Positions 23,718-64,000 are shown, numbered from the stretch's first letter. The stretch: 64,000 nt of DNA from Candidatus Pacearchaeota archaeon (GCA_026002795.1 BPGA01000001.1:27470-91469), one strand, 5' to 3'. Made by a program: numbers and translations. The notes: generated by a model not told the origin, from the sequence alone.

Positions 23718-24131
23718 TTGTTTATAAAAAACATAATTAAAGGCTATATGAGAGAAAAAATTTATGTAGTTCCTATAATTGTAAGAAGTTTTGATGGAAG
23801 GATTTTGGTCGTTAAAAAAGAGGGTTCTTTAGAGTTGCCATTATGGGTTTTTGATTTTAAAGAAAATCCTGTAGATTTTTTAAAAAGAAGGTTAAATGAA
23901 GAGTTTTATGGTTCTTTTATAGTTAGATATTTTTTAGGTGAAAACTCTTCTATTATCGGTAAAGATAATTTAGAGAGGATTATTGCTTATAGGGTTGATT
24001 GTAAGACTCATGACGTCTACAATAAAAAAAGTTTTAATCTCTTTTATAGAGATTTTGTTTGGGCTGATCGCACGAACTTAATAAAACTTAGAGAGCTATT
24101 AAAAGAAGAAAGATTTTTGGAGTTTGTATAA
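23718..24131 (+). CDS. Nudix-fold-like protein with a degenerate Nudix box
   Basis: 137 aa. ENPVDFLKRRLNEEFYG approximates Ex7REUxEExGU, but has RR instead of RE and one extra residue. Confidence 0.4.
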   Translation: MFIKNIIKGYMREKIYVVPIIVRSFDGRILVVKKEGSLELPLWVFDFKENPVDFLKRRLNEEFYGSFIVRYFLGENSSIIGKDNLERIIAYRVDCKTHDVYNKKSFNLFYRDFVWADRTNLIKLRELLKEERFLEFV

Positions 24132-24380: not shown

Positions 24381-25310
24381 TTAGCTTGTTTTTATATTTA
24401 AAATTATCTCGTTGTTTTCTTTAAAGAGTTCTTTTTCGTGGTAATCTATAGATATTTTAATCTTTTCAATGTTTTTTTGTAAAACAAAAATATTATTTAT
24501 TTTTATTATTTTTCCAGCACCGATTTTAATTCCTTCTATTGAGGTTTCTTTGATTGGCTTTTCGTCTGCATAAATTATAACTTTTGTAGAGTTTGAATCG
24601 GCTAGACCTTGATTTTTTATTGTAAATTCCACATTTAAATATCTGCCAGAGATAGATGCAAATGCTTCCTCTAGTGAAAGATCCGGAAGAGTTGGATAAG
24701 AGTAGAGTTCATTTATTAGTTTAGGAATTTCTTCTCCTATTTTTTGATTACAATTACTAATATTGTACATAATATTGTTCGGGTTATCAGAGTGATCAAA
24801 TCCAAGAGCATGCAAAAGTTCGTGAAGAGCAACATTTGGATCAGGACATTTTGACTCTCTAATTAAAGTTATTGCTCCTTGATAAATTACATTAAAATTG
24901 TCTGTTATCGTGATGTTAATTGGACCGCCTTCACCAGCAACAAAAAGATTTCCTGACTCAAATCTCCTCTGTCTTTCGCATGTTATGTAAATTTCTTCAT
25001 TAGATGTAACAGGATAAAAGTTTAGAATTGTAAGATTTTCAATTATTTGAAATGCTCTTTCCATTTCGTCCTTTTTTTTAAGAGAACATCCTTCAATTCT
25101 GTATGAAATGTCTTTATTTCTATACCTAAGATTGTCATAAAACTGCATTTTTGTATTGTTGCTCAAGCTAAAATTTGCTGATTTTTCTGTTTTTTGAGGA
25201 AGAAATTCAATAGTGCTAAAAGGAAAAAACCAGTAAAACCCTAAAAACAGGATTACTAAAATTAAAAAAATTGATAATGAAAGATCTTTAATAGTTTTTG
25301 TAGACATCAA
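24381..25310 (-). CDS. membrane-anchored metzincin (matrixin-like) zinc metalloprotease
   Basis: 309 aa with an N-terminal TM helix, HELLHALGFDHS (HExxHxxGxxH), and a downstream IMY Met-turn. Confidence 0.8.
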   Translation of the reverse strand: MMSTKTIKDLSLSIFLILVILFLGFYWFFPFSTIEFLPQKTEKSANFSLSNNTKMQFYDNLRYRNKDISYRIEGCSLKKKDEMERAFQIIENLTILNFYPVTSNEEIYITCERQRRFESGNLFVAGEGGPINITITDNFNVIYQGAITLIRESKCPDPNVALHELLHALGFDHSDNPNNIMYNISNCNQKIGEEIPKLINELYSYPTLPDLSLEEAFASISGRYLNVEFTIKNQGLADSNSTKVIIYADEKPIKETSIEGIKIGAGKIIKINNIFVLQKNIEKIKISIDYHEKELFKENNEIILNIKTS

Positions 25311-28398: not shown

Positions 28399-31300
28399 AA
28401 AATTTTGTGAATTTTCTAGTAATTTTTGTTTTAACAGTTGTATCTATAAATTTGATTAGTGCTCAAACTGTTTCTATTGAATTTAATGTAAAAGACGATT
28501 CTGGAAATCCTTTAAAAGAATCATTAATTATAATCCAAGGAATAACCAATACAAATTTTAGTCAAACAAAAATAACAGATTCTAATGGAAAAGCTATTTT
28601 CAATCTAAACAAAAATGAGCTTTTTTCGTATATTATTTATAAAATTTCTTATGAAGAATTAAGCGGAAGTATATTTACAAATCAAGATAAAGTAATAAAT
28701 ATTGTTTTAAAAAAACTACCTCCAGACCGGTGGTATTTTTATAGAATAAATAACGGAGAATTAGATTTTAGTTTTAAAAGTTTAGATAATGATACAAATT
28801 ATAATCCTAATGAATACATAAAGAGCTCAATTGAAGTAAAAAATATAGCTGGAAAAAGAATTCAGCTTTTGAATGAAAAAAGTTTTTTTAGAACAATAGA
28901 TGCAGATACAGAAAAAGTTCTTAGGGCTTGGGGTAGGTTTGATTTTGGGGGTGGAAAAAATTTAACAGAAGTGATTTTAAAAGAAGGTGGTTGGATAAAA
29001 GCAAGTTTAATTGAAGAGAAAGCAGAATTTTGTGGTAGTAATATAATAATTACTTATAATAACCTAAGAATAGAGCTTTCTGGAAGTGAATCTATTTGTT
29101 TAGAAGATTCTCAAAGTTATAACAAAATACCAGAATGGATTTTAAAAAACAATTATAAGATGAAGCTTGATTACTTTTATAAAATAGATAACATAGAAAG
29201 AACAATAAGTTTTATATCTCAACCCTTTTTTATTAACAATACAGAATGGAAACCTGAAATAATCTCTTTTCCACAAACAGAGATTTCTGTTGAAGAAGAA
29301 TGGGTTTATCAAATAAAACTTAAAGAGTATCCTGAAAGTTATTCTCCTGTTTTAAATCTCATTAATTATGCTCTTATGGATTATCCTGAAGGAATGAGTA
29401 TTGATAAAGACAAAGGAATTGTTAAATGGAAACCAACAAAACCAGGGGAGTATAATGTAACAGTAAGAGCATATCATCAATACTTTGAAAATAATTCAGA
29501 TAAAATAGCTTTTTTTGATCAGAGCTTTTCATTAAAAGTAAAACAAGAAAAGCAAAACAATCCCCCAATTGCATACAACATAAACATAACAACAGAAGAG
29601 AATAAGCCAGTAACTTTCAATTTAAATGCAACTGATCCTGAAAATGATCCTTTAACTTTTATAATTGTAAGCAATCCATCAAATGGCTCAATTTCCAATT
29701 TTAATTCTTCTACAGGAGAAATTACTTACACACCAAATCCAAGTTTTTTTGGAACAGATAGCTTTAGTTTTAAGGCTAATGATGGAAAATTAGATAGCAA
29801 CATTGCAATTGTAACAATAACAGTAAATCCTATACCAAAAAACAAACCACCTGTAATAAAATCTCAGCCTGTGACAGAAGTTAATGAAAATTCTCATTAC
29901 AGTTATCAAGTTATTGCAGAAGATGAAGATGGAGATTCTTTAACCTACTCTTTAGAAGCTCCTTCTTGGCTTTCAATAAGCTCTACTGGTTTAATTTCAG
30001 GAATAGCTCCAGAAGTTTCAGAGGATGTTGTTTTTGATGTAATTTTAAGAGTTAGTGATGGAAAAGATTTTTCTGAGCAGAAGTATCAGTTGAAAGTTGT
30101 TAATGTAAACAAACCACCTGTGATAAAATCTCAGCCTGTGACAGAAGTTAATGAAAATTCTCATTACAGTTATCAAGTTATTGCAGAAGATGAAGATGGA
30201 GATTCTTTAACCTACTCTTTAGAAGCTCCTTCTTGGCTTTCAATAAGCTCTACTGGTTTAATTTCAGGAATAGCTCCAGAAGTTTCAGAGGATGTTGTTT
30301 TTGATGTAATTTTAAGAGTTAGCGATGGAAAAGATTTTTCTGAGCAGAAGTATCAGTTGAAGGTTGTTAATGTAAACAAACCACCTGTGATAAAATCTCA
30401 GCCTGTGACAGAAGTTAATGAAAATTCTCATTACAGTTATCAAGTTATTGCAGAAGATGAAGATGGAGATTCTTTAACCTACTCTTTAGAAGCTCCTTCT
30501 TGGCTTTCAATAAGTTCTACTGGTTTAATTTCAGGAATAGCTCCAGAAGTTTCAGAGGATGTTGTTTTTGATGTAATTTTAAGAGTTAGTGATGGAAAAG
30601 ATTTTTCTGAGCAGAAGTATCAGTTGAAAGTTGTTAATGTAAACAAACCACCTGTGATAAAATCTCAGCCTGTGACAGAAGTTAATGAAAATTCTCATTA
30701 CAGTTACCAGGTTATTGCAGAAGATGAAGATGGAGATTCTTTAACCTACTCTTTAGAAGCTCCTTCTTGGCTTTCAATAAGTTCTACTGGTTTAATTTCA
30801 GGAATAGCTCCAGAAGTTTCAGAGGATGTTGTTTTTGATGTAATTTTAAGAGTTAGTGATGGAAAAGATTTTTCTGAGCAGAAGTATCAGTTGAAAGTTG
30901 TTAATGTAAACAAACCACCTGTGATAAAATCTCAGCCTGTGACAGAAGTTAATGAAAATTCTCATTACAGTTATCAAGTTATTGCAGAAGATGAAGATGG
31001 AGATTCTTTAACCTACTCTTTAGAAGCTCCTTCTTGGCTTTCAATAAGTTCTACTGGTTTAATTTCAGGAATAGCTCCAGAAGTTTCAGAGGATGTTGTT
31101 TTTGATGTAATTTTAAGAGTTAGTGATGGAAAAGATTTTTCTGAGCAGAAGTATCAGTTGAAGGTTGTTAATGTAGAGAAAAAAGAAGAAAAGAGAGAAA
31201 TAGAAGAAAAAAGATTTTCATTTAGGTCAGTTGAACCAGATGATTTTGAATTTAACATTTATTTTAATCAATTTTCTCTGCCAGAACAGAAGTCTATTCC

Positions 31301-31463
31301 AATTTCAGAAAAAAGCACTATTAAAAAAAGTTTTTTAAAAGAAGAAGATGAAGAGAAAATAAGAGAAATAGCTGTATTGTTTATCTTTTTAAATTTAAAT
31401 TCTGCTTTGGTTGTTTTGTTTGTTTTAATTAAAAAAGGATTTATATTTAAAAGAGCTATTTGA
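28395..31463 (+). CDS. large surface protein with cadherin-like/Ig-like domains, five identical 89-aa repeats and a C-terminal TM anchor
   Basis: 1022 aa with a signal peptide. One domain reads ...NATDPENDPLTFIIVSNPSNGS...FKANDGKLDSN (bacterial cadherin-like). It is followed by 5x KPPVIKSQPVTEVNENSHYSYQVIAEDEDGDSLTYSL... Confidence 0.75.
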   Translation: MKNFVNFLVIFVLTVVSINLISAQTVSIEFNVKDDSGNPLKESLIIIQGITNTNFSQTKITDSNGKAIFNLNKNELFSYIIYKISYEELSGSIFTNQDKVINIVLKKLPPDRWYFYRINNGELDFSFKSLDNDTNYNPNEYIKSSIEVKNIAGKRIQLLNEKSFFRTIDADTEKVLRAWGRFDFGGGKNLTEVILKEGGWIKASLIEEKAEFCGSNIIITYNNLRIELSGSESICLEDSQSYNKIPEWILKNNYKMKLDYFYKIDNIERTISFISQPFFINNTEWKPEIISFPQTEISVEEEWVYQIKLKEYPESYSPVLNLINYALMDYPEGMSIDKDKGIVKWKPTKPGEYNVTVRAYHQYFENNSDKIAFFDQSFSLKVKQEKQNNPPIAYNINITTEENKPVTFNLNATDPENDPLTFIIVSNPSNGSISNFNSSTGEITYTPNPSFFGTDSFSFKANDGKLDSNIAIVTITVNPIPKNKPPVIKSQPVTEVNENSHYSYQVIAEDEDGDSLTYSLEAPSWLSISSTGLISGIAPEVSEDVVFDVILRVSDGKDFSEQKYQLKVVNVNKPPVIKSQPVTEVNENSHYSYQVIAEDEDGDSLTYSLEAPSWLSISSTGLISGIAPEVSEDVVFDVILRVSDGKDFSEQKYQLKVVNVNKPPVIKSQPVTEVNENSHYSYQVIAEDEDGDSLTYSLEAPSWLSISSTGLISGIAPEVSEDVVFDVILRVSDGKDFSEQKYQLKVVNVNKPPVIKSQPVTEVNENSHYSYQVIAEDEDGDSLTYSLEAPSWLSISSTGLISGIAPEVSEDVVFDVILRVSDGKDFSEQKYQLKVVNVNKPPVIKSQPVTEVNENSHYSYQVIAEDEDGDSLTYSLEAPSWLSISSTGLISGIAPEVSEDVVFDVILRVSDGKDFSEQKYQLKVVNVEKKEEKREIEEKRFSFRSVEPDDFEFNIYFNQFSLPEQKSIPISEKSTIKKSFLKEEDEEKIREIAVLFIFLNLNSALVVLFVLIKKGFIFKRAI
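29844..31175 (+). repeat. 5 x 267-bp in-frame tandem repeat
   Basis: Unit starts (aaaccacctgt) at 29844, 30111, 30378, 30645 and 30912, with an exact 267-nt period. Only a handful of substitutions separate the units, and all that I checked are synonymous. Confidence 0.95.
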
Positions 31464-38652: not shown

Positions 38653-39213
38653 ATGTATGAGAGAGATAATATTTTAAGGATTTTTAAAGAAGTTAAGAAT
38701 TCTTTAGAAAAAGGAGATGTTGCAAAAATAAAATCATTAAGTGATCAAACAACAAATAGTGCTGCTTTAACATTAGATCCTGATAATATCGCTGCTGCGG
38801 TTATTGTTTATTCTTTAAGTAAAATACTTGAAAGAGAACAATACAAAAAACTTCCTGGTTGGAATTCTTTTTACAGGATATATTCTACTAGTATAGATAA
38901 TATAATAAAGGCAATAGAAAAAAAAGATGATTTAAGTTATAGAAAAGAAATTGAAAAAATAAGAAACGCAATAGAAAAAATTTCTGGAGGTTTAAAAGAG
39001 AATATTAAAGATGTTTTTAGAAAGGCAAGCATAAATAAAGCTTCAAAACTTTATGAGCATGGCATTTCAATGGAAAAAACTGCAAGACTTTTAAATGTTA
39101 GTTTAGCTGAATTAGCGAGTTATGCTGCTGAAAAAGAAATCTATGATATTCCAGAATCAAAAACAATCCCTATAAAACAAAGACTAAAAACAGCAATTGA
39201 TTTTTTTAGTTAG
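38653..39213 (+). CDS. hypothetical protein with possible C-terminal HTH
   Basis: 186 aa, helical, with the segment MEKTARLLNVSLAELASY. Confidence 0.35.
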   Translation: MYERDNILRIFKEVKNSLEKGDVAKIKSLSDQTTNSAALTLDPDNIAAAVIVYSLSKILEREQYKKLPGWNSFYRIYSTSIDNIIKAIEKKDDLSYRKEIEKIRNAIEKISGGLKENIKDVFRKASINKASKLYEHGISMEKTARLLNVSLAELASYAAEKEIYDIPESKTIPIKQRLKTAIDFFS

Positions 39214-51909: not shown

Positions 51910-53280
51910 TTAAGTAATTTGCAGATCCAAGCAAGCTCTATAGGTCCTGTATTTTTGTGTTGACTCGCAAGATGCTTGATTATTAATTGATCCACAGTTA
52001 GCTCCTGTGTCAATTACAAGAGAATCTCCAGTAAATTCTCCTGGATCACAGTTAGGAACAGAATATCCTGGATCATAACAAATAGAAAGTCCAGTATCCC
52101 ATAAACAATAATTTTGTAAGTTTTGCTTAACTTCTAAGTTAATTGTTGCTCTTTTGTTGTCTGTTCCGAATGTTCCACTTCTTATGTTGTTTCCTGATAT
52201 GATTGCGTTACCAGCTACCTCAAGTTTTTCTCCAGGATTCGTCGTGCCGATGCCGACGTAGCCGGTAGTCTTAATTACAAATTCTGGAGAGGTAAAACTG
52301 GAGTCTGTTGTTTTTCCTGTTCCAATAGCAAAGTCGCTGGTGCTATATACTGTACCAATTGACCAAGGGTAGTTTCCTGATCTAATTAGATTTATATATT
52401 GGCCGCTAGCTGCTGGTTTGGTTATTACAAGGTCACCATTATAACCATTGTCTGGACTAGAACTACTTGAAATAGTTACGCGTCCTCGAACATCCAACTT
52501 CTGGCTTGGCCCCGTCGTGCCTATGCCGACGTTGCCCATTATATATGAATTTCCTGTTCCGTCTATTTGCAGAACGCTAGAGGTTTTTACAACGTTAGCA
52601 GTGTCAAGCAACCTTGCCCAGCCCCCCCAGGAACCAGTAGTTTGACTATATCTGTGCCAAATATTTCCACTTGAACCAAATGCTAATTGATGAACTCCCC
52701 CACCACTCCAGTCTGTTCCAGAACTCCATTGTCTATAAGTTAGAAGCCCGCTGTAAGTTCCTTCACCAGAAAGTCCAATCACACTATTATATTTAAACTC
52801 AGGTACCACCCCCATATAATACTGCTCCGGATTATAGTTATTGTTTCTTGTATCAGAACTTCCAAGCACTCCCATTAATACATTTCCTGTTAAAGGAGGC
52901 GAACCTACTCTTAAATTCCCGCCTTGTACATCCAACTTTGCTCCCGGCCCCGTCGTCCCGATGCCGACGTTGCCGCTAACAAATAAATTTTGTCCACATG
53001 TATCGCAACCTATACGTACTCTACCAGAAGATGCTCCGAGTACTAAATCATTACTAGCGCCCCCCGAATTAGTTTCTGCATAAAGACCTACATAGTTCCA
53101 TGCAGTTCCGATTCTTAATCTACCTCTGCCGCTACCTACATCCTCATTTCCTTGAACGTGCATATTGTTTTCAACCCAGACATCAGTAGCATATATATTT
53201 GCACCAGCACCATTTACAGCAAGTTTTACTTGTGGATTCGTCGTCCCGATGCCGACGTTGCCGGCTTCTCGAATAACCAT
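51910..53280 (-). CDS. C-terminal segment of giant GNVGIGTT-module tail-fibre-like surface protein, Cys-rich end
   Basis: 456-aa frame with four module motifs. There is no signal peptide and no independent start context, and upstream sequence continues the same protein in other frames. The tail is Cys-rich (...CLWDTGLSICYDPGYSVPNCDPG...). Confidence 0.6.
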   Translation of the reverse strand: MVIREAGNVGIGTTNPQVKLAVNGAGANIYATDVWVENNMHVQGNEDVGSGRGRLRIGTAWNYVGLYAETNSGGASNDLVLGASSGRVRIGCDTCGQNLFVSGNVGIGTTGPGAKLDVQGGNLRVGSPPLTGNVLMGVLGSSDTRNNNYNPEQYYMGVVPEFKYNSVIGLSGEGTYSGLLTYRQWSSGTDWSGGGVHQLAFGSSGNIWHRYSQTTGSWGGWARLLDTANVVKTSSVLQIDGTGNSYIMGNVGIGTTGPSQKLDVRGRVTISSSSSPDNGYNGDLVITKPAASGQYINLIRSGNYPWSIGTVYSTSDFAIGTGKTTDSSFTSPEFVIKTTGYVGIGTTNPGEKLEVAGNAIISGNNIRSGTFGTDNKRATINLEVKQNLQNYCLWDTGLSICYDPGYSVPNCDPGEFTGDSLVIDTGANCGSINNQASCESTQKYRTYRACLDLQIT

Positions 53281-53663
53281 TGCCGGAGATGTATAACCTC
53301 ATGTTGGTCCATTATTTACCCTGAACATGTTACCGCCATTATCGCCTAAAGCTGATTTGTGGTTGCGTCATGACACATATCCGAAATTGTCAGTATCTGC
53401 AGAAAAACTGAAAGCAGGAGCAGCAGCTGTTCCATTAGCAGCCTGAATTACTCTTCCAGATGTTATTACTGTAGTACCTCCTATTTGTAAATTACCTGAG
53501 ACTAAATTTAATGAATCACCACTTGCTAAATCTAATGCTATTTGCAGCTCCTCTAAACAACTGGTACATCTGGATTAAAGTAAAGATTAGCTGTTGTATT
53601 TATTGAACCAATAACATCTAATGTTTGTTGTGGTGTTGTCGTCCCAATCCGACGTTGCCAGAG
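53281..53663 (-). pseudogene. frameshifted copy of the PQQTLDV...NLYFNPDV...ITSGR module linking two long frames
   Basis: Nucleotide-level homolog of 62330-62700 and 58200-58560, but with a 1-nt deletion inside the motif (gtcccaatccgacg) plus further indels and stops. Confidence 0.7.
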
Positions 53664-56213
53664 TTATCTAATACCAACACATTGCCCAACCCACTCGACC
53701 AGTAACAATAAGTCACCTCCTGTTCCTGCTCCATGAAGTGTCTCATTAGCAGAAATGATGTCCCAAGCCCTATCACCGCTTCTCTCTATTCTCAGTCTAC
53801 CGGCATTTCCATTTGAGTCGCCGAAGAGGTGGAATTGTACTCCTGGATTCGTCGTCCCGATGCCGACGTTGCCGTTTTCGTCGACAGCGACTGCTAAAAG
53901 ATTTCCTTGTGTATTAGTTAGCGCATTCTTTAAAGTTCCTGTAGCAACAAAAGATCCATCAATTAAAAATCCTCTAATTTCACAGTGGGGTTGGTTTGCT
54001 GTATCATCAAGCAAACATTCAACTGCTTTGTCTAAAGTTTCTGTGTTGTTTGCTCCTTCAAATATTGCTGCATATGGTCTTCTTGAACCGCTATTAGGTG
54101 ATAATTGTGCTTTGTATAATCCAAGTCTTCCAAATGCAGAATCTAAATTAGTAGTAACTGCGCTCTCCCATGCGTCATAAGATGTTAAAATTCCAATTTG
54201 GTCTTTTCTTAGGTTGTTTAATGCTGTTGCTAAATTATCTGACTGTGTGGAGTTTCCATAAGTATCATAAGTGTTGTCGGATACTATAGTGTGGTTTGCT
54301 TTCCATATAATCGTTAACCTAAGACCTCTTCCAGAAGTGTCATAAACTGTTGTATTGCCTATCTTTAAAACTCTGTTTGCATTATTGTTTAATCCAGTAC
54401 CTCTTATATAAATTGGAACTATTTTCGATATAACATTTGTTCCTAGTGAATTAATTTCACATGTTCCATCAGCATTACAAGCTAATGCATTGCTTGCTGT
54501 TCCGCTTAATGTTCCATAAATAGTTCCAGTAGCTCTAATATCTCCAGCAACATCCAATTTATAAGCCGGACTTGCTGTCCCGATGCCGACGTTGCCGCTA
54601 GTTATTCTCATTCTTTCAACATTGTTTGTGTATATAGCCAAATTACCATCAGATATCCACTGAAGTCCTGTATCGCTATCTCCAACGGCAAGAGATATTA
54701 CTGGCGAACCACCCAAACCACTTCCACCTCTTACAAAGAGATTATTGTTGATATTAACATTTCCAGCAACTTGCAATTTTTCAGAAGGTGCTGTCGTCCC
54801 GATGCCGACGTTGCCATTCCAATTTTTTATATAAATTGTTCCGTATTCGTTGTCATCTGGTGAGACTTCACGTATCTCAGGATAAGCAAACTGTACTTTA
54901 TCACCTGCAACACCTGAGTAACAATAACCAAAACGAATGATCGCGTAAGCTGCATTACTTGGCATCCTCCAATCAGTTCCTATGGTTTTACTGGATTGAA
55001 CATCCGAAATCCCATCCGCATTCGCATCAGTCACATATGAAGGATCAAGAAATCCATTCACTTTTCTCCAATCGCTTGAAGTAGTGGTAGTAGCCCAGAA
55101 ATAAGGATTGTCCCAGGCTCCTGTAATGCGATTATTGTTACTATCATAAACATAAAATCCAAGATACTTATAGCCAGATGTTCCAACTGTTTGCCTCATC
55201 CAAACACTGAATTCATATTTTTTATTTGGGTCTATTTTTACTCTTTTTTGATAATACGCCCATTGATAACAGCTTCCTGAATTTCCATTAGAGGTGCTTT
55301 CAAGAGCTTTAATCTGGGAACCATCAGTAAAAGTTGTTGTGACAGTAGTGACACTACCCCATGCATCAGAATCTCCCAAGTTAGTAGATGATTCTAGGAG
55401 GTTTGCACCGGCAATATTTTTAGCAGCTACACCTCCAGCAATTTCAAGTTTGACATTTGGCGCTGTCGTCCCGATGCCGACGTTGCCGAGGCTTGTTATT
55501 ACCATTCTATCGTTCCAACCATCAGTCCCCCTTGTCGTAAAGTACAAATCACCATAAGAATTTACGTGGTCTGTAATTTTGCCAGAAACATAACCTATAA
55601 TTCCATTTGCCCCAGCAAAAGCAAGGGATGCGAAATTTCCAGCTGTACTATTAGTGTTTCTTAATTCAAGCGAGTTGCCGGTGCCTCCTGTGCCAGTTGA
55701 TGTTTGCGGATTGATTATTACCAAACCTCTTGCAGAAGCACCACCGGTAGATATACTTGCTGCATAGCCTCCAGTATTTCCAGCTACTACCGTTAGCTTT
55801 TCTCCCGGCGCCGTCGTCCCGATGCCGACGTTGCCTGTTGTTGTCAAAACTAACCCTGTGCCGGTTTGCGGATTTAATCTGAAATTACCTGTATCGTCGA
55901 CTCCGGTCCAAAATTGACGCGATGTAGAATCATACCACTCAATATAATTCCACTTGCTTGTTGGAGAATCTGTCTGTCGCAATCTCAGTATGTTATCCGC
56001 TGTGGAAGATATTTCCAGCGGCGATCCGGGTCCCGTCGTCCCGATGCCGACGTTGCCGCCAAGATAGATATTTGTAGTCCCACCAGGGATTGCTATGAGA
56101 TCAACACCATTTCTGTTTGTTATATCAACATCGTAAGTCGTACCGTTACCAGCAATCACAAGACCAGAACCAGAATTGTAATACATCACTCCTCCACTAA
56201 AAGCCCCGGCCAA
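53664..56213 (-). CDS. central segment of the giant surface protein (jelly-roll CBM-like and ILEI/GG-lectin-like inserts)
   Basis: 849-aa frame with nine module motifs. It begins at a TTG inside continuing sense. It ends because of a 1-nt insertion at 53703 relative to the paralogous sequence at 63859-64000. Confidence 0.65.
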   Translation of the reverse strand: MAGAFSGGVMYYNSGSGLVIAGNGTTYDVDITNRNGVDLIAIPGGTTNIYLGGNVGIGTTGPGSPLEISSTADNILRLRQTDSPTSKWNYIEWYDSTSRQFWTGVDDTGNFRLNPQTGTGLVLTTTGNVGIGTTAPGEKLTVVAGNTGGYAASISTGGASARGLVIINPQTSTGTGGTGNSLELRNTNSTAGNFASLAFAGANGIIGYVSGKITDHVNSYGDLYFTTRGTDGWNDRMVITSLGNVGIGTTAPNVKLEIAGGVAAKNIAGANLLESSTNLGDSDAWGSVTTVTTTFTDGSQIKALESTSNGNSGSCYQWAYYQKRVKIDPNKKYEFSVWMRQTVGTSGYKYLGFYVYDSNNNRITGAWDNPYFWATTTTSSDWRKVNGFLDPSYVTDANADGISDVQSSKTIGTDWRMPSNAAYAIIRFGYCYSGVAGDKVQFAYPEIREVSPDDNEYGTIYIKNWNGNVGIGTTAPSEKLQVAGNVNINNNLFVRGGSGLGGSPVISLAVGDSDTGLQWISDGNLAIYTNNVERMRITSGNVGIGTASPAYKLDVAGDIRATGTIYGTLSGTASNALACNADGTCEINSLGTNVISKIVPIYIRGTGLNNNANRVLKIGNTTVYDTSGRGLRLTIIWKANHTIVSDNTYDTYGNSTQSDNLATALNNLRKDQIGILTSYDAWESAVTTNLDSAFGRLGLYKAQLSPNSGSRRPYAAIFEGANNTETLDKAVECLLDDTANQPHCEIRGFLIDGSFVATGTLKNALTNTQGNLLAVAVDENGNVGIGTTNPGVQFHLFGDSNGNAGRLRIERSGDRAWDIISANETLHGAGTGGDLLLLVEWVGQCVGIR

Positions 56214-56768
56214 CCTTGAGACGATGAAATTTTTAATCTTCCCGCAACTTCAAGTTTTTCATTCGGACTCGTCGTTCCAATGCCGACGTTGCCTGAAGTA
56301 TCTATAATCATTCGCGTATTTCCCGTTTGTCTAAATTCTATCGGTTCATTTGCATTATCTAAAGTTTCAATAATTAATTTAGATAAACCAGTTCCATCTC
56401 CTGTTGATTCAAAACGTATACTTCCAGCATCAGTATTTGCATCCCATCTTAATCCATAATTATTGTCTATATGTATGTTGCCCCCAGAAACATGTAATTT
56501 TCCCGCGGGTCCCGTCGTCCCGATGCCGACGTTGCCAGCGTTAGTAATTTGAAATGCGTTCCATCCTGCGCCACTTGTCCAGAAACCGACATTTGCGCCA
56601 TTCTGCCCGACAAACATAGTCTTACCATTATCTAACCATACACCACCGTCTCCACCAGCGTCACCTGTATGAATACGACCGGAAACTCGTAAATCAACAG
56701 TAGTGCCACCCCCGCCAACTACATTCAACTTTGCTCCAGGTGTCGTCGTGCCGATGCCGACGTCTGCC

Positions 56769-57280
56769 TGTATTGCTATTCACAAAAAGAGTATTTGTGT
56801 CAACTGTGAAATTCTGTCCAACAACAACATTATTATTAAATGTCTTATCTCCTGCAAAAATCTGCGTTCCTGTAGAAACAACTCCTGATTGTGTTGAAGA
56901 AGCATCTCTTATTGTAACATTACTTGCGCTTGTAATTCTTCCTTGAGCATCAACTGTGAATCTTCCCACTACAATATCTCCGCCATAAGTTCCTGCTGTT
57001 ACTCCTGTGTTTGAAAGAGAGAAGGTTACATTTCCGCTGCCAACAAGTCTATCTGTCAGTGTTCCTGAAATTGACATGCCTGTTCCTTGGACAATAGATC
57101 CTTTAACAAAACCAGCGCTTGTGTTAACTTCCTGAAGCTGACTTAATGTTACAGCATCTTGTGCAGATGTTCCATTTGCAAGATTAATGATTTTGTTGTT
57201 GTCCATGTTTATTGTTCCGTTGAAAACAGCAGAACCATTTACATGGAGTTTTTGTTGTGGTGTTGTTGTTCCAATGCCGA
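56769..57280 (-). repeat. 512-bp direct repeat, copy A
   Basis: Colinear without indels with 57673-58184 (offset 904 bp) and about 95 percent identical by eye. Its 57148-57270 part is near-identical to 62190-62312. Confidence 0.85.
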
Positions 57281-57672
57281 CATAGTTTGTGTTGGTAATT
57301 GTCAAGAATCGTTACTCTTGACTTGTTCCTCCTCGCTGGAGCAATACGACCAATATCAAAGAGATCGTTGATAGAATCAAGCGTCAAAACCCAGGATGGA
57401 CCATTTATGTCTCGCCTGCGTCGGTACTTGATGAGATGCACTAAAACTAGTTTCAAGTTTGCCCCTAAGGCCACATTCTCGTCTTTCCCCAGCTGCAAGC
57501 AATATGTCAGTACCGATTCGTCGTTGAAAGCCGATTAGTAGCCGAGGAGTATTGGAATCTAATTCGTCCGCCATCGTAGCTCCGTTGCACCTGAAGCGGT
57601 GGCTCCCCCAATGCACCCGCTTGAATATCGAGTTTTGCCTGCCGGTGTTGTCGTCCCGATGCCGACTCTATC

Positions 57673-58184
57673 TGTATTGCTGTTCACAAAAAGCGTATTT
57701 GTGTCAACTGTGAAATTCTGTCCAACAACAACACTATTATTAAATGTCTTAGCTCCTGCAAAAGTCTGCGTTCCTGTAGAAACAACTCCTGATTGTGTTG
57801 CAGAAGCATCTCTTATTGTAACATTACTTGCGCTTGTAATTCTTCCTTGATTATCAACTGTGAATCTTCCCACTACAATATCTCCGCCATAAGTTCCTGC
57901 TGTTACTCCTGTGTTTGAAAGAGAGAAAGTTACATTTCCGCTGCCAACAAGTCTATCTGTCAGTGTTCCTGAAATTGACATGCCTGTTCCTTGGACAATA
58001 GATCCTTTAACAAAACCAGCGCTTGTGTTAACTTCCTGAAGCTGACTTAATGTTACAGCATCCTGAGGGTTTGTTGCATTAGCAAGGTTGATGATTTTGT
58101 TATTGTCCATGTTTATTGTTCCGTTGAAAACAGCAGAACCATTTACATGGAGTTTTTGTTGTGGTGTTGTTGTTCCAATGCCGA
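57673..58184 (-). repeat. 512-bp direct repeat, copy B
   Basis: See copy A. It encodes the same DNNKIINLAN...VTLSQLQEVNTSAGFVKG...FTVDTNTLFVNSNT module. Confidence 0.85.
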
Positions 58185-58675
58185 CGTTGCCGCCTGCATC
58201 TATTCTAAACCTTTCACATACCTGCTGTTGAACAATGCAAGCTGGTTTGTTGTTGGCAAAAACATTCCGTTGTCAGTATCTGCAGAAAAACTGAAAGCAG
58301 GAGCAGTCGCTGTCTCCATTAGCAGCCTGAATTCATTCTTCCAGATGTTATTACTGTAGTACCTCCTATTTGTAAATTACCTGAAACTAAATTTAATGAA
58401 TCACCAGTTGCTAAATCTAATCTATTTGCAGCTCCTCTAAACAACTGTACATCTGGATTAAAGTAAAGATTAGCTGTTGTATTTATTGAACCTACAACAT
58501 CTAATGTTTGTTGTGGTGTTGCTGTTCCAATGCCGACTCTGCCTGAAGTATCATTAACAAACAAATCATTAGTAACATTAAGACTTAGTCCTCCTGTTCC
58601 GCTACCTTGTATTTCAAGTTTTGCACTCGGACTCGTCGTCCCGATGCCGACGTTGCCGGAAGTTGTTAATCGCAT

Positions 58676-59150
58676 AACCTCTGTTCCAATACTAGTGCTT
58701 GAGCCTATAGCAAACCTTAGATCGTAAGGAGAACCAGTGAAGCCCGCCCTCCAAACACCACTGGCTTCAGATCCTTGCGACCAAGTAAGCCATGCTTGGT
58801 CAGCATCTAAAGTTTTGTAATTTTGCTAGCAATAGATCTCGAACTACCTGCAGCTTCGCCCCCGGATTCGTCGTCCCGATGCCGACGTTGCCTGATGTTG
58901 TCATTCTTATTATCTTCAACTACCGTTTCCAAATGCTACACTGATTGTTTGACCACATACCTATTAATAACCTGTTCGCAACGTCATTCCCGTCCCTCCT
59001 GAGATCCTTGAATATTAGCTATCGATTATAAGCATATCTGGCTCTCCCATCCGAGTGAAGTTATTATACCAGCCATTAGCAACCACTAAGCATGTCTTGT
59101 CTGCTCCAGATCTATAGCAGTGATTCGTTCACTTATAATATTCTCAGAGT
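58676..59150 (-). pseudogene. decayed linker between the LamG-head ORF and downstream modules
   Basis: It still contains one intact motif (58870-58892) and a readable stretch, TLDADQAWLTWSQGSEASGVWRAGFTGSPYDLRF..., but 58900-59150 has stops in all minus-strand frames. Confidence 0.55.
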
Positions 59151-60791
59151 CTACCGATTCTCCTGAGGCAAGAGGTCGAATTGTACTCCTGGCCCCGTCG
59201 TCCCGATGCCGACGTTGCCGCCTGTAGTTATGTGAACTAAGTTGTTAATATGTGTATTAACTTGATTATCATTGTTGATATAGAGATCATTTCCTATAGC
59301 TTGGATTTCGTTAGCATCAAGATGAATACCAGCTGTGCCCCCAGAGTTTAAAATTTGCAATACTCCAGATCCTACACCTGTATTTACATCACTATCAGAC
59401 CTAAGCCTCACATCTCCGACTACTTCTAATTTTTCTGTTGGATTCGTCGTTCCAATGCCAACGTTGCCGTTAAATATAACATCCCTATTTGTTTTTAAGT
59501 TCATTGCTTGGAACCATTGAGATCCATTATAATAACTAAAAATTAGTTGATCAGGTTCGCCACTATATTGACTCCCTCTCTTTGTTATAACCCAAAAAGC
59601 ATTTGAACCGGATTCTCTAAATTCCATTTGAGGAGAGCTTGGACCTGTTGGAGAAGTGCCTTCTATTTTAATAATAGAGCTAACAACATGTAACTTCGCC
59701 CCCGGCGTCGTCGTCCCGATGCCGACGTTGCCGCTTGTTCCGTTGGCAAAGAAAAATACAGAATTGGTTGTATTCACAAGTCTAAATATATCTGAAGTAA
59801 TTGTGTTTTGTTGAATGCCTCTTAAATACTGGAGTTTTATTTCTTCTTCACTTAAAGCTCTATCATAAACTCTTACCTCATCAATTACTCCTGAAAATGG
59901 TCTAGGATCTGTTGTTATCCAAATTCCGATATTTAAATTTCCTGTTCCAAAATTTAAGTTGCCGCCAGAAAGTGTTCTAATTCCATCAAGAATTCCATTA
60001 AGATAAATCCTCATTTCAAATGTTGAATTGTCATAAGTTGCGGCAATATGATACCATCTGTTATTTGATAGTGTTGTGTTTGCAGAAAGTGTTTGTTGTG
60101 TTCCGTTGTTTATACTTAAAAATAATTTGTTGTTAAAAATTCTGAAGTAATTTGATGAAGGAGACTCTCTTCCAAAGATCATCTGATCATTTGAGACTGC
60201 TGTTGGGTATATCCAAGCTTCCCAGGTTAATGATTTTGCGTTGTTTAGTGCTTGAGATGTCGTTACACTGACATAGCTTCCGTTATTTGATGCTAGTCTT
60301 GTAAAGTTTAAAGCAATTCCCATTTTTCCTGATGTAAATGTTGGATTAATGCAAGAAGTTCCTACACAAGTAAGAGTACCGTCTGTGCCAAATGGACCTC
60401 TGTCATAAGTTAAGCTACCAGAACCTTCTGAAAAAGGTAGATAAAGCATTAAACCATCTGGAGTTGCATATCCTGGCTGGAATATTGTACTATTTGTTAT
60501 AATGGTGCCACTTACATTAAGTAAACCCTCAATATTTGTATTCCCAGAGGCATTAATATCCTTAACAAAAAGCGCTGTAATTCTATTGGTTAAACTTCCA
60601 AGAAAACCAAAAAAGCCGTAATTTGATGTTGAAACATTGCCTAGTACAGTAAGATTTCCTGTGTCTCCATGAATTCTTACAAGATCTGTTCCAGTTTGAT
60701 TCTGGAACCTATAATCTCCTGCTGAAACAAAGTTTATGCTAGTTGCAATTAATAAAATTATTAAAATTTCCGCTAAATAACCTCTTTTCAT
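59151..60791 (-). CDS. signal-peptide LamG/concanavalin-A-like lectin domain protein with GNVGIGTT modules (head of the giant gene)
   Basis: 546 aa with signal peptide MKRGYLAEILIILLIATSINFVSA. The LamG-like core is ...LTWEAWIYP...WYHIAATYD...MRIYLNG...VRVYDRALS. It carries three module motifs, and its start overlaps the HEPN stop. Confidence 0.75.
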   Translation of the reverse strand: MKRGYLAEILIILLIATSINFVSAGDYRFQNQTGTDLVRIHGDTGNLTVLGNVSTSNYGFFGFLGSLTNRITALFVKDINASGNTNIEGLLNVSGTIITNSTIFQPGYATPDGLMLYLPFSEGSGSLTYDRGPFGTDGTLTCVGTSCINPTFTSGKMGIALNFTRLASNNGSYVSVTTSQALNNAKSLTWEAWIYPTAVSNDQMIFGRESPSSNYFRIFNNKLFLSINNGTQQTLSANTTLSNNRWYHIAATYDNSTFEMRIYLNGILDGIRTLSGGNLNFGTGNLNIGIWITTDPRPFSGVIDEVRVYDRALSEEEIKLQYLRGIQQNTITSDIFRLVNTTNSVFFFANGTSGNVGIGTTTPGAKLHVVSSIIKIEGTSPTGPSSPQMEFRESGSNAFWVITKRGSQYSGEPDQLIFSYYNGSQWFQAMNLKTNRDVIFNGNVGIGTTNPTEKLEVVGDVRLRSDSDVNTGVGSGVLQILNSGGTAGIHLDANEIQAIGNDLYINNDNQVNTHINNLVHITTGGNVGIGTTGPGVQFDLLPQENR

Positions 60792-61186
60792 TTTAATTTT
60801 TTCTCGACAAATTTAATTAACATGTCTATGATTTTCTTAATGTCATTTTCGTTGTTTACCAAAAAATCCTCGGTAATTTTTTTGCCATAGTAGACAATAT
60901 CATTCCTAAACTTCCTTAGATTATCAATAAGTTTTGCATAAGAATCATCAATTTCATAATTCTCAACAAAATAATCTAATAATTTCACATGACTAAGTGT
61001 TTTATATCCATCAGAATACATAACTGCTGTCAATAATTCTTTAATTATTTCATAGTATTCTTCAATAAACTTGTAAGGCTTATCTCTTGGAAGAATTTTT
61101 ATGATTTCTAATCTATCCTTTGCCATTTTAAATAAGTCTTTAGCTCTTTCTTTATCTTTTGAAATTTTGAATATCTCTTTCATCAC
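60788..61186 (-). CDS. HEPN-domain protein, paralog of 16182-16601
   Basis: 132 aa with the motif LRKFRNDIVYYGKK, again with Tyr at the His position. It aligns along its length with the first HEPN protein. Confidence 0.7.
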   Translation of the reverse strand: MMKEIFKISKDKERAKDLFKMAKDRLEIIKILPRDKPYKFIEEYYEIIKELLTAVMYSDGYKTLSHVKLLDYFVENYEIDDSYAKLIDNLRKFRNDIVYYGKKITEDFLVNNENDIKKIIDMLIKFVEKKLK

Positions 61187-61761
61187 AAACCTCCGTAAAG
61201 CACTAAACCATTCTTTATTTTTTTTTGAATATTCTTATCTAGCTTAGAAAAATCATCTAGGATAATCACTCTAATTCTTCTTTTTAAAACACTTTCAAAT
61301 TTGGAAAAATCAATCTCTTTCTTTATTTTAGAAACAACAAAAAAATCAATATCGCTTGATTCTACATCCTCTCCTCTTAAATAAGATCCAAATAAGATTA
61401 TTGCTTTTGGATGAAGCTCATTAATAATTTTGTCTCTTAATTCCTTCAAAGAAAGAATGTTATAAGACATTTTTAACCATATAAAAGAGTCATTTTCTCT
61501 ATTAGCGACATATCCGTCAAACGGCTTAGATTTCCTCTTAATTATAAGCCCTTTCTTAGTTAGTTCTCTTATATAGTTTCTAACAGAAGGGTGTGCTAAT
61601 TTTATCTTTTTACTTATCTCTTTTATGAAATGTATTGTAGTTGGCTCTCTAAAGAACACCTCTAAAACCCGGATATAGCTACATTTAACCATATGGTATA
61701 ATAATGTACCCTTTGGTATATAAATATTCCCTTTGGCTATTTTAACTTTATTGAATTCCAT
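61183..61761 (-). CDS. wHTH-fused minimal nucleotidyltransferase, paralog of 16598-17131
   Basis: 192 aa with FGSYLRGEDVESSDIDFFV and N-terminal IKEISKKIKLAHPSVRNYIRELTKKG. Confidence 0.8.
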   Translation of the reverse strand: MEFNKVKIAKGNIYIPKGTLLYHMVKCSYIRVLEVFFREPTTIHFIKEISKKIKLAHPSVRNYIRELTKKGLIIKRKSKPFDGYVANRENDSFIWLKMSYNILSLKELRDKIINELHPKAIILFGSYLRGEDVESSDIDFFVVSKIKKEIDFSKFESVLKRRIRVIILDDFSKLDKNIQKKIKNGLVLYGGL

Positions 61762-61762
61762 T

Positions 61763-64000
61763 TTATATTCTAAATATCATATCACCTCCTTGAGTAAAAA
61801 CACGGGCTGAACCTATGAACATTGTTTGAGTAACATTCGCATCACCAACAACATTTAGAGTGTTTTGTGGAGTGCTTGTGTTTATGCCAAGTCTTTCTGT
61901 TGTATTGTTCCAGAATAGTTTAGCATTATTTTGGCTTAAAACACCGTTAGCTCCTGCAAAAATTAAAGAGCCTTGATTAAAGCTTGAAAGTGTTAATCCT
62001 GCAAATGTTGGACTTGATGTTGTGTTTATGTCTTGTGGAAGGCTAAATGTCCATTGCCTATTTTGAGTTAAATCTTGAGGCCCTGTTGGTGTTACTGAAA
62101 TTTGATTTGCTGTTCCAATCATCTCAAGTGTTCTTGATTGTGGAACTGCGTTTGTTGCAGTTGAGTTTACTGATTGCAATTGTGAAAGTGTTACAGCATC
62201 TTGTGCAGATGTTCCATTTGCAAGATTAATGATTTTGTTGTTGTCCATGTTTATTGTTCCGTTGAAAACAGCAGAACCATTTACATGGAGTTTTTGTTGT
62301 GGTGTTGTTGTAGCAATGCCGACGTTGCCGCTACTGTCTATTCTTACTCTTTCTAAACCTGCTGTTGAAAATGCAAGCTGATTTGTTGTTGGTATGAACA
62401 TTCCGTTGTCAGTATCTGCAGAAAAACTGAAAGCAGGAGCAGCAGCTGTTCCATTAGCAGCCTGAATTACTCTTCCAGATGTTATTACTGTAGTACCTCC
62501 TATTTGTAAATTACCTGAGACTAAATTTAATGAATCACCGCTTGCTAAATCTAATCTATTTGCAGCTCCTCTAAACAACTGTACATCTGGATTAAAGTAA
62601 AGATTAGCTGTTGTATTTATTGAACCAACAACATCTAATGTTTGTTGTGGTGTTGTTGTTCCAATGCCGACTCTGCCTGTGTTTCCTACAAAAGTTACAA
62701 ACTCTGAATTAGAATCATTTAAAAAGGCTAACCTATAATCTCCTGCACCAGAATTCCAGTTAACAATGTTCCTTAATTTTATATCTCTTGTTGCCTGAAC
62801 AACTCCTCCAGCACTTACGTTGCTGTCATATTTTCCTCTGAAAATCACATCAGGAGAGTCTGAACTTGAATTATCTGCTACATCGTTTGCAAGTGCTATA
62901 GCACTTCTTGAAAATAAGATATCACGCCACCTATAACTAGAATTTCCTAAATCAAAACTATTATCTAAATCAGGAATTAAGCTTCCATTAATTTCTAAGT
63001 TATTAACTTGAAGTGCAGAAATATTAACAAAATAACCTGTTCTGAGCATAAATATCCCCACCAATAATTGAAAGCCCACCATTCTGCCAACCACCATTAA
63101 AATCAAAATTGCCATATACAGATGTGTTAAGTGGCATGAAAAAGCTAGAGTCATAACCATCAAGTTTGTCTGCGTTTACATTAGTTAAGCCAGAACCATT
63201 TCCTGAAAAAGTTCCATAAATTGTTCCTGTTGCATTAATGTCACCTATAACATTCAACTTATTTGCAGGTGTTGTCGTTCCGATGCCGACGTTGCCTGTG
63301 TTTGAATTTACAAACAAAACATTAGAGCCTACTGTGAGGTTGTTGTTAATAACTGCATTGTTTCTTATTGTTGTTGTTCCTGAAGAAGCTCCAAGTCTTA
63401 AGGTTGTTGCAGCTCCACCAATGTCAAGAGTTGTTGCAGTTGTATTTATTAAAGCGAAAGTTGTTGATGGTGTTGTTATATTTGAAATTATTGATGGACT
63501 TGTTAATGTTGGTGTGTTATTAAAAACAAGAGCTCCAGAACCTGTTTCATCTGTTACAGACAGAAGCAACATTAGCAGAAGAAATTGTAGAAACAAGATT
63601 TGAAGAAGAATCTGTTGCAACCAACCTATTTGCTGTTAATCCTGAAATTCTTGCGTTTGTTCCATAAATTGTTCCTGTTGCATTAATGTCACCAACAACA
63701 TTCAACTTATTTGAAGGTGTTGTTGTTCCAATACCAACATTACCTGAAGTGTCATTAACAAACAAATCATTAGTAACATTAAGACTTAGTCCTCCTGTTC
63801 CGCTACCTTGTATTTCAAGTTTTGCCCCCGGCGCCGTCGTTCCAATGCCGACGTTGCCAGAGTTATCTAATACCAACACATTGCCCAACCCACTCGACCA
63901 GAACAATAAGTCACCTCCTGTTCCTGCTCCATGAAGTGTCTCATTAGCAGAAATGATGTCCCAAGCCCTATCACCGCTTCTCTCTATTCTCAGTCTACCG
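61763..64000 (-). pseudogene. second giant GNVGIGTT-module gene, 5' end outside the window, with at least two frame changes
   Basis: Three overlapping frames (63547-64000, 63024-63620 and 61763-63163) carry continuous sense, for example ...IIGGDIYAQ then TGYFVNISALQV. It contains the phage-tail-fibre-like motif DNNKIINLANGTSAQDAVTLSQLQ. Confidence 0.65.

Follow-up and report, generated by a model that had tools for sequence, protein, structure and literature searches.

The fibre locus and its recurrent coding word

The sequence analysed here is a 64,000-nt piece of the chromosome of a Candidatus Pacearchaeota archaeon (hereafter, the window), in which the minus strand from position 51910 to the window end carries two clusters of open reading frame (ORF) fragments for a tail-fibre-like surface protein. 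Our subject is a GC-rich word of 23 to 24 nt that recurs in both clusters and encodes the peptide GNVGIGTT at the module boundaries of this protein. The proteins are rich in Gly, Thr, Ala and Ser, which raises the GC fraction at first and second codon positions to 0.45-0.5 and thereby the GC content of the locus to 40-43%, in a window of 28% GC overall and 25-32% outside the fibre locus. The clusters are composed as follows.

59151-60791, minus strand: first ORF of fibre cluster 1, with a Laminin_G_3 (concanavalin-like lectin) domain and three motif-headed modules
51910-58675, minus strand: remainder of fibre cluster 1, in fragments 58319-58675, 57559-58110, 56694-57305, 56186-56728, 53664-56213 and 51910-53280
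61763-63906, minus strand: fibre cluster 2, in fragments 61763-63163, 63024-63620 and 63547-63906

At the protein level, homology places the locus with tail-fibre-like and MAT trimeric fibres. Matches to crystallised structures are to Bdellovibrio MAT fibres (8OND_A, Bd2133, E = 2.5e-8; 8OML_A, E = 1.8e-5; also 8ON4), and the aligned regions include GNVGIG(A/T)TAPxxKLxV. Tail-fibre families of PHROG are matched with E values down to 2.8e-23, and some of the 1576 homologues are named tail fiber, chaperone of endosialidase or trimeric autotransporter adhesin. The first ORF begins with a hydrophobic N-terminus resembling a signal peptide; the remainder of cluster 1 matches phage tail-fibre PHROG families and YadA_stalk, as well as CBM_4_9 and ILEI below the Pfam gathering cut-offs. 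Peptidase_S74 (PF13884), present in many homologues, has no match in any fibre fragment of the window, so that this locus would be of a non-S74 type or truncated. Homology between the two clusters reaches base 64000, and cluster 2 therefore probably continues beyond the window.

Binding-type domains lie between the motif-headed modules, namely at residues ~291-397 and ~629-705 of the product of 53664-56213 and at residues 170-319 of that of 59151-60791. The lectin fold of the latter is clear, and the CBM_4_9 and ILEI matches fall just under their cut-offs. Such an arrangement would be in keeping with a fibre that presents ligand-binding units of several kinds at different points of its length.

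To count the word, we scanned the window with the 23-mer GGCAACGTCGGCATCGGGACGAC, which gave 20 matches with at most 3 mismatches, 12 of them exact, all on the minus strand between 52241 and 63858; 100 dinucleotide shuffles gave none. Peptide-level and looser scans raised the total to 28 copies of GGCAACGTCGGCATCGGGACGAC(G), spanning 52240-63858 and again all on the minus strand, in agreement with an earlier note on this DNA that had put the number at no less than 21 to 28. The looser scan found no copy on either strand of positions 1-52000. Within the clusters, the copies are spaced by 114-723 nt, and their flanks are mutually unrelated. They are listed here; unless stated otherwise, a copy was found by both the 23-mer and the peptide scans.

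52240-52263, minus strand: motif copy GGCTACGTCGGCATCGGCACGACG, reading GYVGIGTT
52513-52536, minus strand: motif copy with 2 mismatches (ATA GGC)
52951-52974, minus strand: exact motif copy
53239-53262, minus strand: exact motif copy
53637-53659, minus strand: damaged hybrid motif copy with a 1-nt deletion (self-comparison and looser scan)
53850-53873, minus strand: exact motif copy
54573-54596, minus strand: motif copy reading GNVGIGTA
54792-54815, minus strand: motif copy, exact 23-mer
55464-55487, minus strand: motif copy, exact 23-mer
55812-55835, minus strand: exact motif copy
56034-56057, minus strand: exact motif copy
56270-56293, minus strand: motif copy, ATT GGA variant
56513-56536, minus strand: exact motif copy
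56744-56768, minus strand: motif copy frameshifted by a 1-nt insertion (GGCAGA-C-GTCGGC...; looser scan)
57264-57287, minus strand: degenerate motif copy AACTATGTCGGCATTGGAACAACA, reading NYVGIGTT (looser scan)
57649-57672, minus strand: motif copy GATAGAGTCGGCATCGGGACGACA, reading DRVGIGTT (looser scan)
58168-58191, minus strand: motif copy, half AT-spelt (ATT GGA ACA ACA)
58520-58543, minus strand: motif copy reading GRVGIGTA, at a junction (peptide scan and self-comparison)
58634-58657, minus strand: exact motif copy, homologous only downstream, to the downstream side of the copy at 63858 (23-mer scan and flank comparison)
58869-58892, minus strand: exact motif copy
59196-59219, minus strand: exact motif copy
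59445-59468, minus strand: motif copy with 3 mismatches (GTT..ATT GGA)
59709-59732, minus strand: exact motif copy with the 3′ shoulder CCG GGG GCG AAG (23-mer scan and BLAST)
62306-62329, minus strand: motif copy reading GNVGIATT, half AT-spelt (peptide scan)
62654-62677, minus strand: motif copy reading GRVGIGTT (peptide scan)
63273-63296, minus strand: motif copy with 1-2 mismatches
63721-63744, minus strand: fully AT-spelt motif copy GGTAATGTTGGTATTGGAACAACA (peptide scan)
63835-63858, minus strand: motif copy, ATT GGA variant

Three of these copies are damaged, by a 1-nt deletion at 53637-53659, by a 1-nt insertion at 56744-56768, and by substitution to NYVGIGTT at 57264-57287. The copies of cluster 2 are more AT-spelt than those of cluster 1. 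The half-converted copies that the earlier note had placed at 58169 and 62307 were recovered at 58168-58191 and 62306-62329; its fully AT-spelt copy likewise exists, at 63721-63744 and not at 63720-63742 as it had stated. A tandem-repeat finder reported nothing in the fibre locus except an unrelated 20-nt repeat at 61694-61736, and the fibre modules are thus not tandem copies. On the plus strand, ORFs of 60-141 residues antisense to the locus (e.g., 53755-54180, 55294-55557 and 63238-63603) all contain VVPMPTLP; since this is the reverse-complement reading of the motif, we regard these ORFs as mirror products of the repeat and not as evidence for genes.

The description of the host genes as giant could not be upheld for the window, where the locus is split into at least 10 ORF fragments and 9 of 26 inter-motif intervals shift frame or hold stops, as against 3% of 839 intervals elsewhere. 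Two of the breaks are the 1-nt indels inside the copies at 53637-53659 and 56744-56768, and another is an extra A in a GGGAAAA run directly 3′ of the copy at 57649-57672. The housekeeping genes of the same window are intact, unlike the frame-broken fibre locus. Pseudogenisation, silent cassettes, phase variation or sequencing error could each account for the breaks. In relatives, the fibre genes are intact: locus L361, in an archaeal metagenome-assembled genome that is the closest relative found (46% protein identity), has ORFs at 10001-13972 and 17522-23972 of 1323 and >2815 residues, and locus L035 holds up to 27 motif copies in 8 kb.

Frame breakage on this unusual scale might be a sign that the repetitive region was poorly assembled or sequenced. 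An artefact would mean that the motif arose by chance, from chimeric assembly across a short repeat, or from contigs of one source that were placed in the wrong bins. We consider the probability of this negligible. Against it speak the empty shuffles, the archaeal housekeeping genes on the same contig (thermosome, Rpb7, ScpA and HisRS), the presence of the word on long chromosomal contigs of many phyla, and its recurrence in metagenomes and viral contigs. A 23-nt repeat is, moreover, shorter than the k-mers usually employed in final assembly, and assembly errors cannot create synonymous conservation.

Silent sites of the word are conserved

The GC fraction at third codon positions (GC3) of the eight motif codons ranges from 0.62 to 0.96, as against 0.08-0.5 for neighbouring codons and 0.184 for the background genes of the window; the fibre ORFs as a whole have a GC3 of 0.267, or 0.235 once the motif codons are masked. 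The earlier note had reported GC-ending motif codons in an AT-preferring context and had proposed a comparison with the genome's codon table, which we carried out and in which the contrast holds. The canonical codons are among the rarest here, making up the following shares of their synonymous families: GGC 9%, GTC 5%, ACG 4%, GGG 7% and ATC 9%. Under the codon usage of the window, the seven canonical codons together have a probability of 2e-8 per site.

Could this merely follow from conservation of the residues? The conserved sequence continues past the motif as GNVGIGTTxPxxKLxVxG, and the codons for P+9, K+12, L+13, V+15 and G+17 are mixed and mostly AT-ending. At motif position 0, Gly is encoded by GGC in 23 of 24 copies, compared with 2 of 19 at the conserved Gly +17 (Fisher p 7e-9); Val is encoded by GTC in 22 of 24 copies within the motif and in 0 of 18 at +15 (p 5e-10). 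When two copies share the amino acid, their codons agree with a frequency of 0.71 in the motif and 0.35 at the flanking P, K, L, V and G. The mixed codons of these nearby conserved residues mean that the GC3 contrast is not a matter of residue conservation. Our data hence support the view, also put forward in the earlier note, that amino-acid selection cannot explain the nucleotide identity and that something acts at the nucleic-acid level. The note had named silent divergence on a par with that of the flanks as fatal to its claim; the silent divergence of the motif is in fact far lower.

One process that acts on codons and not on residues is translational selection, be it for a rare-codon pause that aids co-translational folding or trimerisation, or for decoding accuracy at an essential loop. 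The canonical codons are indeed among the rarest of the genome and stand at every module start, and the first five are of the form NNC, read by G34 tRNAs with full Watson-Crick pairing. Yet the same codons are used in loci where flank GC3 is 0.5-0.8 and where they are common, so that rarity is not conserved. Nor does selection of this kind predict one specific choice between G and C (in the window, ACG and never ACC; GGC at positions 0 and 3 and GGG at position 5), and equally conserved residues 2-10 codons away show no bias. Given, in addition, that other lineages spell the motif differently, we judge translational selection quite improbable as the cause.

Within the word, codons 4 (ATC/ATT) and 6 (ACG/ACA) occur in all four combinations in the window. 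Such a pattern could arise if conversion breakpoints fall inside the word, but also by recurrent mutation.

Homology blocks change partner at the word

Conservation between copies has sharp limits at the edges of the 24-nt word. In the window, median identity between copies falls from 0.88 in the motif to 0.30 in the 60 nt upstream and to 0.42 downstream. Five pairs of copies are at least 75% identical over 60 nt on one side, and none on both. Across 240 loci, 61 one-sided pairs stand against 3 two-sided ones. Self-BLAST of the window places the 5′ limits of homology blocks on the 5′ edge of the motif, and across 361 loci and the window the identity block crosses the motif and ends within a few bases of its far edge (46/60 and 32/43 cases). 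Two of the blocks in the window are the following.

56730-57281, minus strand: module X′ (552 nt), 95% identical to 57634-58185, with motif copies at both ends of each
58051-58545, minus strand: homology block with its 5′ limit on a motif copy, 92% identical to 62189-62679 (self-BLAST)

Since both copies of module X′ are bounded by the motif at either end, a whole module has been duplicated from motif to motif. Another block, the one downstream of the copy at 62677 (TPQQTLDVVGSINTTANLYF...), is found with three different upstream partners, at 62677, at 58543 and at 53637-53659. At the 58520-58543 junction, the upstream side is 98% identical to that of the copy at 63744 and the downstream side 98% identical to that of the copy at 62677. 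A further example of such a switch is the damaged copy at 53637-53659, which matches the upstream side of the copy at 63858 (98%) and the downstream side of the copy at 62677 (94%); the motif itself is a hybrid, its 5′ half resembling the copy at 63858 and its 3′ end that at 62677. As flanks and motif halves alike derive from two different copies, this indicates a crossover inside the motif. Homology blocks thus change partner exactly at the motif.

The copies are also oriented and framed in a manner that suits such exchanges. As in the window, where all 28 copies lie on one strand, the copies are on a single strand in 235 of 236 multi-copy loci; in loci other than the window, 97% of the inter-copy intervals are open. 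The exact word lies in the open GNVGIGTT frame in 372 of 377 cases and never occurs as a free-standing site. With copies direct and in frame, recombination between any two of them yields an in-frame deletion, duplication or swap.

The word is shared by bacteria, archaea and viruses

We searched genomes, one per species, with the exact pattern GGCAACGTCGGCATYGGRACRAC and found it on at least 120 contigs. Among the 80 contigs listed, 41 belong to Patescibacteria (CPR) and 12 to archaea, the latter comprising Nanoarchaeota, Woesearchaeota, Aenigmatarchaeota and two methanogen bins, with about 10 from DPANN. The remaining listed contigs come from Gamma- and other proteobacteria, Elusimicrobia, Omnitrophica, Bdellovibrio-like bacteria, Acidobacteria, Bacteroidia, Planctomycetes and others. 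Several are 0.4-1.7 Mb long, including a complete 1.1-Mb Roizmanbacteria chromosome and a 1.68-Mb Oligoflexia contig, and the motif is therefore chromosomal there. A scan of IMG/VR likewise gave at least 120 viral contigs, while the 50,697 records of cultured phages contained only two weak matches, both to a chaperone-of-endosialidase gene of Synechococcus phages. The motif is hence not private to this genome but common to bacteria, archaea and viruses, and it is a feature of uncultured lineages. Judging from the names of the 80 listed contigs, the taxa are mostly episymbiotic or predatory lineages of small cells, a correlation that suggests a role in attachment to host or prey. The literature that we searched did not mention the peptide GNVGIGTT or NVGIGT or this nucleotide conservation, and nothing describing such a motif came up in publications that deal with gene conversion and tail fibres or with the surface fibres of DPANN. 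As for the same GC-rich codons occurring in relatives without repetition, which the earlier note would have counted against itself, the relatives mostly carry repeated arrays as well.

A search with an exact pattern favours its own spelling; a second, unbiased sample was accordingly drawn from metagenomes with a fully degenerate GNVGIGTT pattern (198 sites in 120 loci). The exact canonical seven codons appear at 31 of these sites, in 13 of the loci, compared with 0.07 expected from the codon usage of the same-frame flanks (Poisson p 2e-70). Where flank GC3 is 0.2-0.4, motif GC3 is 0.52-0.69, and the codon excess is restricted to the eight codons (189 sites), canonical copies having in addition a soft 3′ shoulder of CCG, GGG and AAG. 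The preference is for particular letters and not for G or C as such: GGC outnumbers GGG by 118:5 at codon 0, GTC outnumbers GTG by 99:18, GGG outnumbers GGC by 78:33 at codon 5, and ACG outnumbers ACC by 75:16.

Beyond the word, the loci share little. By BLAST, the window locus matches the 240 loci only over 40-92 nt centred on the motif, one example being a 52-nt match (94% identity) between a Woesearchaeota contig and the copy at 59709-59732 with its 3′ shoulder; an all-against-all comparison of the 240 loci returned very few long blocks between different loci. On these two results, we reject recent horizontal transfer of whole modules.

Plain recent ancestry is another candidate: modules or their heads would have come from a GC-richer donor, with silent sites not yet decayed and no ongoing homogenisation. 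In its favour, the masked fibre ORFs retain a GC3 of 0.235 against 0.184 in the rest of the window, members of the family are plentiful in viral contigs, and some module pairs of the window are 92-100% identical. The low flank medians reported above speak against it, as does flank GC3, which is already near the host value when that of the motif is ~0.9. The codons of the conserved P, K, L, V and G of the same loop are randomised, and similarity to other genomes never extends past 40-92 nt. We therefore regard recent ancestry as distinctly unlikely, and the very recent copy-paste origin that the earlier note had entertained is rejected, most flanks being unrelated.

Individual loci have their own spellings

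If copies within a locus were homogenised, loci should differ in the spelling on which they settle, and several do. In locus L204, 11 of 14 copies with unrelated flanks read GGC AAC GTC GGG ATT GGG ACT ACG. In L361, 5-6 of 6 copies read ...ATT GGC ACT ... AGT CCT, and L074, L040 and L101 have other majority letters. Third-base identity within loci exceeds that between loci by 0.15-0.19 at codons 3, 4 and 6, as against 0.01-0.11 at control codons. Overall, the homogenisation effect within loci is moderate.

These local spellings bear on the possibility that the word is a sequence-specific functional site under direct selection, for instance one on which a dedicated recombinase or nuclease acts, a binding site, or an element that works at the RNA level. 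Several observations would speak for a site of this kind. The same majority spelling, down to arbitrary choices between G and C (GGC, GTC, GGG, ACG), recurs in no fewer than 120 genome contigs of many phyla and in no fewer than 120 viral ones; the excess of exact words in the unbiased metagenome loci is large, and it persists in contigs with a single copy. That similarity between genomes is limited to 40-92 nt also leaves direct function with some probability. However, L204, L361 and L074 are homogeneous for alternative spellings and the AT-rich L217 prefers none, so the exact word is not required. It never stands free of its coding frame. The copies are all direct, and Pfam scans of 30 ORFs of the window revealed no recombinase or integrase beside the locus, only a weak HTH_7 match at 38653-39213. 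We thus consider a directly selected site unlikely, and the recognition site for a recombinase, nuclease or regulator listed in the earlier note is not borne out.

Three more specific candidates were also considered. The canonical spelling completes a 5-bp RNA hairpin (CGUCG/CGACG; context z-scores -1 to -3.4). The amino acids alone, however, dictate three of its pairs, Watson-Crick covariation at the other two is no higher than at control position pairs, and the L204 variant breaks the stem; Rfam at gathering thresholds had no match in the fibre locus, and we reject the hairpin as the driver. Site-specific inversion is disfavoured by the direct copies and the lack of a recombinase among the 30 ORFs. 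No reverse transcriptase of a diversity-generating retroelement was found among the ORFs scanned, a scan that was not exhaustive, and the motif is invariant, not hypervariable.

A proposed in-frame joint for module exchange

On balance, and with moderate confidence, we favour the explanation that the motif is an in-frame joint for module exchange, kept identical by recombination or gene conversion between its copies. Of the causes listed in the earlier note, this is the one with which the partner switches at the motif and the locus-specific variant spellings agree best. Eight contiguous invariant residues head each module, and their 24 coding bases would be the sole perfect stretch that otherwise unrelated modules can share. 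This stretch would serve as an in-frame crossover point at which modules are duplicated, deleted and re-partnered, be it through RadA/RecA-type recombination, through single-strand annealing, or through a switch of replication template from one direct repeat to another. Each event, or each short heteroduplex, would pass the spelling from copy to copy, such that the silent sites of the motif evolve in concert, while those a few codons away drift to AT-rich usage. Isolated conserved residues add no contiguous match, and it is exactly their codons that are free; this is our chief argument for a mechanism based on contiguous identity and against per-residue translational selection.

The conversion is probably GC-biased. 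Repair of G:T mismatches toward G:C in heteroduplexes could allow the GC-rich spelling to resist AT mutation pressure, as might be expected from what is generally known of mismatch glycosylases and GC-biased conversion. As to why one majority spelling prevails world-wide, the likeliest reason would be common descent of the joint combined with module exchange via phages or other transfer. Our data show the silent-site conservation and its sharp limits, its spread over domains and viruses, the partner switches and the local spellings; the enzymology, the GC bias and the reason for the world-wide spelling are inferred.

Several points weigh against this explanation. At sites with flank GC3 <0.2, the motif is AT-ending with no preferred word and no homogenisation, L217 being an example. 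Per locus, copy number does not correlate significantly with canonical spelling (rho 0.11, p 0.39, n = 66, on short contigs), and the site-level correlation (rho 0.42), which is pseudo-replicated and vanishes at this level, was dropped as support. Contigs with a single copy are also enriched, with 3.25 of 8 canonical third bases compared with ~1.7 estimated from flank frequencies, although these contigs are short and further copies may lie elsewhere in the genomes. Copies at recent junctions are no more canonical than others, and in the window less so, which leaves a drive model in which canonical copies seed new junctions unsupported. Selection for intact domain boundaries alone could place surviving junctions at module borders. 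With 23-24 nt, the word barely reaches the length needed for efficient RecA-type recombination; for the RecBCD-dependent pathway of E. coli, the classical minimal efficient processing segment is ~23-27 bp. Finally, in standard population-genetic theory, unbiased conversion homogenises copies without slowing family-wide change. It cannot, then, freeze a family consensus, and identity across domains needs bias, selection for compatibility or frequent transfer, none of which is demonstrated here.

A bolder version of the joint would make the word a pan-domain standard connector, that is, a DNA adapter shared by phages, Patescibacteria, DPANN, predatory bacteria and others, by means of which modules slot in frame into fibre genes, and kept by selection or drive on exchangeable modules or by an enzyme that recognises the word. 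We assign this proposal a small probability. Were it correct, it would amount to a cassette system for host-recognition domains that operates without a known integrase, and through which modules from any such genome could enter any resident fibre gene.

Relation to known systems

On the reading favoured here, the system belongs with recombination-joint motifs that evolve in concert. Its unusual features are that a single 24-nt word occurs dozens of times per locus and that the silent-site spelling of this word is common to bacteria, archaea and viruses. Short conserved sites within adhesin, pilus or tail-fibre genes that re-partner constant and variable segments in frame are also known from the R64 shufflon (Rci/sfx) and from the Gin, Cin and Min systems of Mu, P1 and p15B. 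The sites of shufflons and Din invertases are inverted repeats served by an adjacent dedicated recombinase; the copies described here, in contrast, are direct and have no recombinase near the locus among the 30 window ORFs scanned.

Concerted evolution by ectopic gene conversion, as in rRNA arrays and in repeated surface-protein modules such as the neck and stalk repeats of trimeric autotransporter adhesins, offers a second parallel, in that copies are more similar than their surroundings predict and variants are shared within a locus. As under GC-biased gene conversion, a GC-rich state is kept against AT pressure, in our case probably through such a bias. The differences are that the tract measures only ~24 nt within non-homologous modules and that its majority spelling is common to several domains, which conversion within genomes alone leaves unexplained.

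By analogy, recombination at the conserved motifs of T-even adhesins is the closest precedent. There, His boxes in gp37 and glycine-rich motifs in gp38 separate hypervariable segments (Tetart et al. 1996, 1998; Trojet et al. 2011, PMC3157838), and the exchanges that give rise to chimeric adhesins fall within or near conserved motifs (PMC3157838). Both systems have short conserved motifs between variable host-recognition segments, junctions at the motifs and in-frame shuffling of modules. Here, however, one 24-nt word is repeated 20-30 times per locus, it is carried by the chromosomes of cells (archaea, Patescibacteria and others) and not by viruses alone, and its silent sites are kept across domains of life, in the window against a background of 28% GC. 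In our case, recombination is read from sequence comparison.

The MAT fibres of Bdellovibrio contain a recurring 'capping loop', V-G-G/N-pi-X-X-P-X-X-X-L, and the portions of the report consulted describe their mosaicism at the protein level only (Caulton et al. 2024, PMC10769870). Homology to MAT/S74 fibres (PDB 8OND, 8OML, 8ON4) suggests a shared architecture of modular trimeric beta-helix fibres with varied binding domains, and GNVGIGTTxPxxKL is probably equivalent to the capping loop, whose consensus is one residue shorter than the spacing in our motif. By way of difference, no S74 domain was found in the fragments of the window, and these belong to an AT-rich archaeon instead of a bacterial predator.

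Silent conservation of a 24-nt coding word across domains and viruses, in genomes from 28% to >60% GC, is rare outside RNA genes and known recombination sites. Should the joint model be true, it would provide a concrete mechanism by which fibres diversify in episymbionts (DPANN, Patescibacteria), predators and phages, and would link these groups by one exchangeable pool of modules. Should the word instead have a direct function, we would be dealing with a conserved intragenic element of a new kind. In practical terms, the word can be used as a simple DNA probe for fibre genes and module boundaries in metagenomes and would constitute a natural seam for engineering chimeric receptor-binding fibres.

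Neighbouring genes

Between the two fibre clusters, on the minus strand at 60788-61761, lies a two-gene unit whose genes overlap by 4 nt. The gene at 61183-61761 encodes a winged-helix plus Pol-beta-type nucleotidyltransferase, and that at 60788-61186 a 132-residue partner without a Pfam match; the unit resembles an MNT/HEPN toxin-antitoxin pair. In L361, an AbiEi/AbiEii pair directly follows the fibre gene.

Elsewhere, the window contains housekeeping genes for a thermosome subunit, Rpb7, ScpA, HisRS, ribonucleotide reductase and the Lhr helicase, and its own protein cluster is recorded on a 535-kb contig. The region 10525-21307 (minus strand) looks like a restriction-modification or other defence island: it holds an ORF of the ResIII/SWI2-SNF2 helicase type (1010 residues), a 514-residue ORF with an N6_N4 DNA methylase domain, and two ORFs (595 and 283 residues) without assigned families, the scan having covered the larger of the two. 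Two further genes without the motif are a 1022-residue surface protein with six He_PIG Ig-like repeats plus cadherin-like and Big_9 domains (28395-31463, plus strand) and a matrixin-type metalloprotease with a CARDB domain (24381-25310, minus strand). At 23572-23709, an Rfam tRNA match extends over 138 nt compared with 71 nt for the model, with no call by ARAGORN; given this length, the tRNA gene probably carries an intron.

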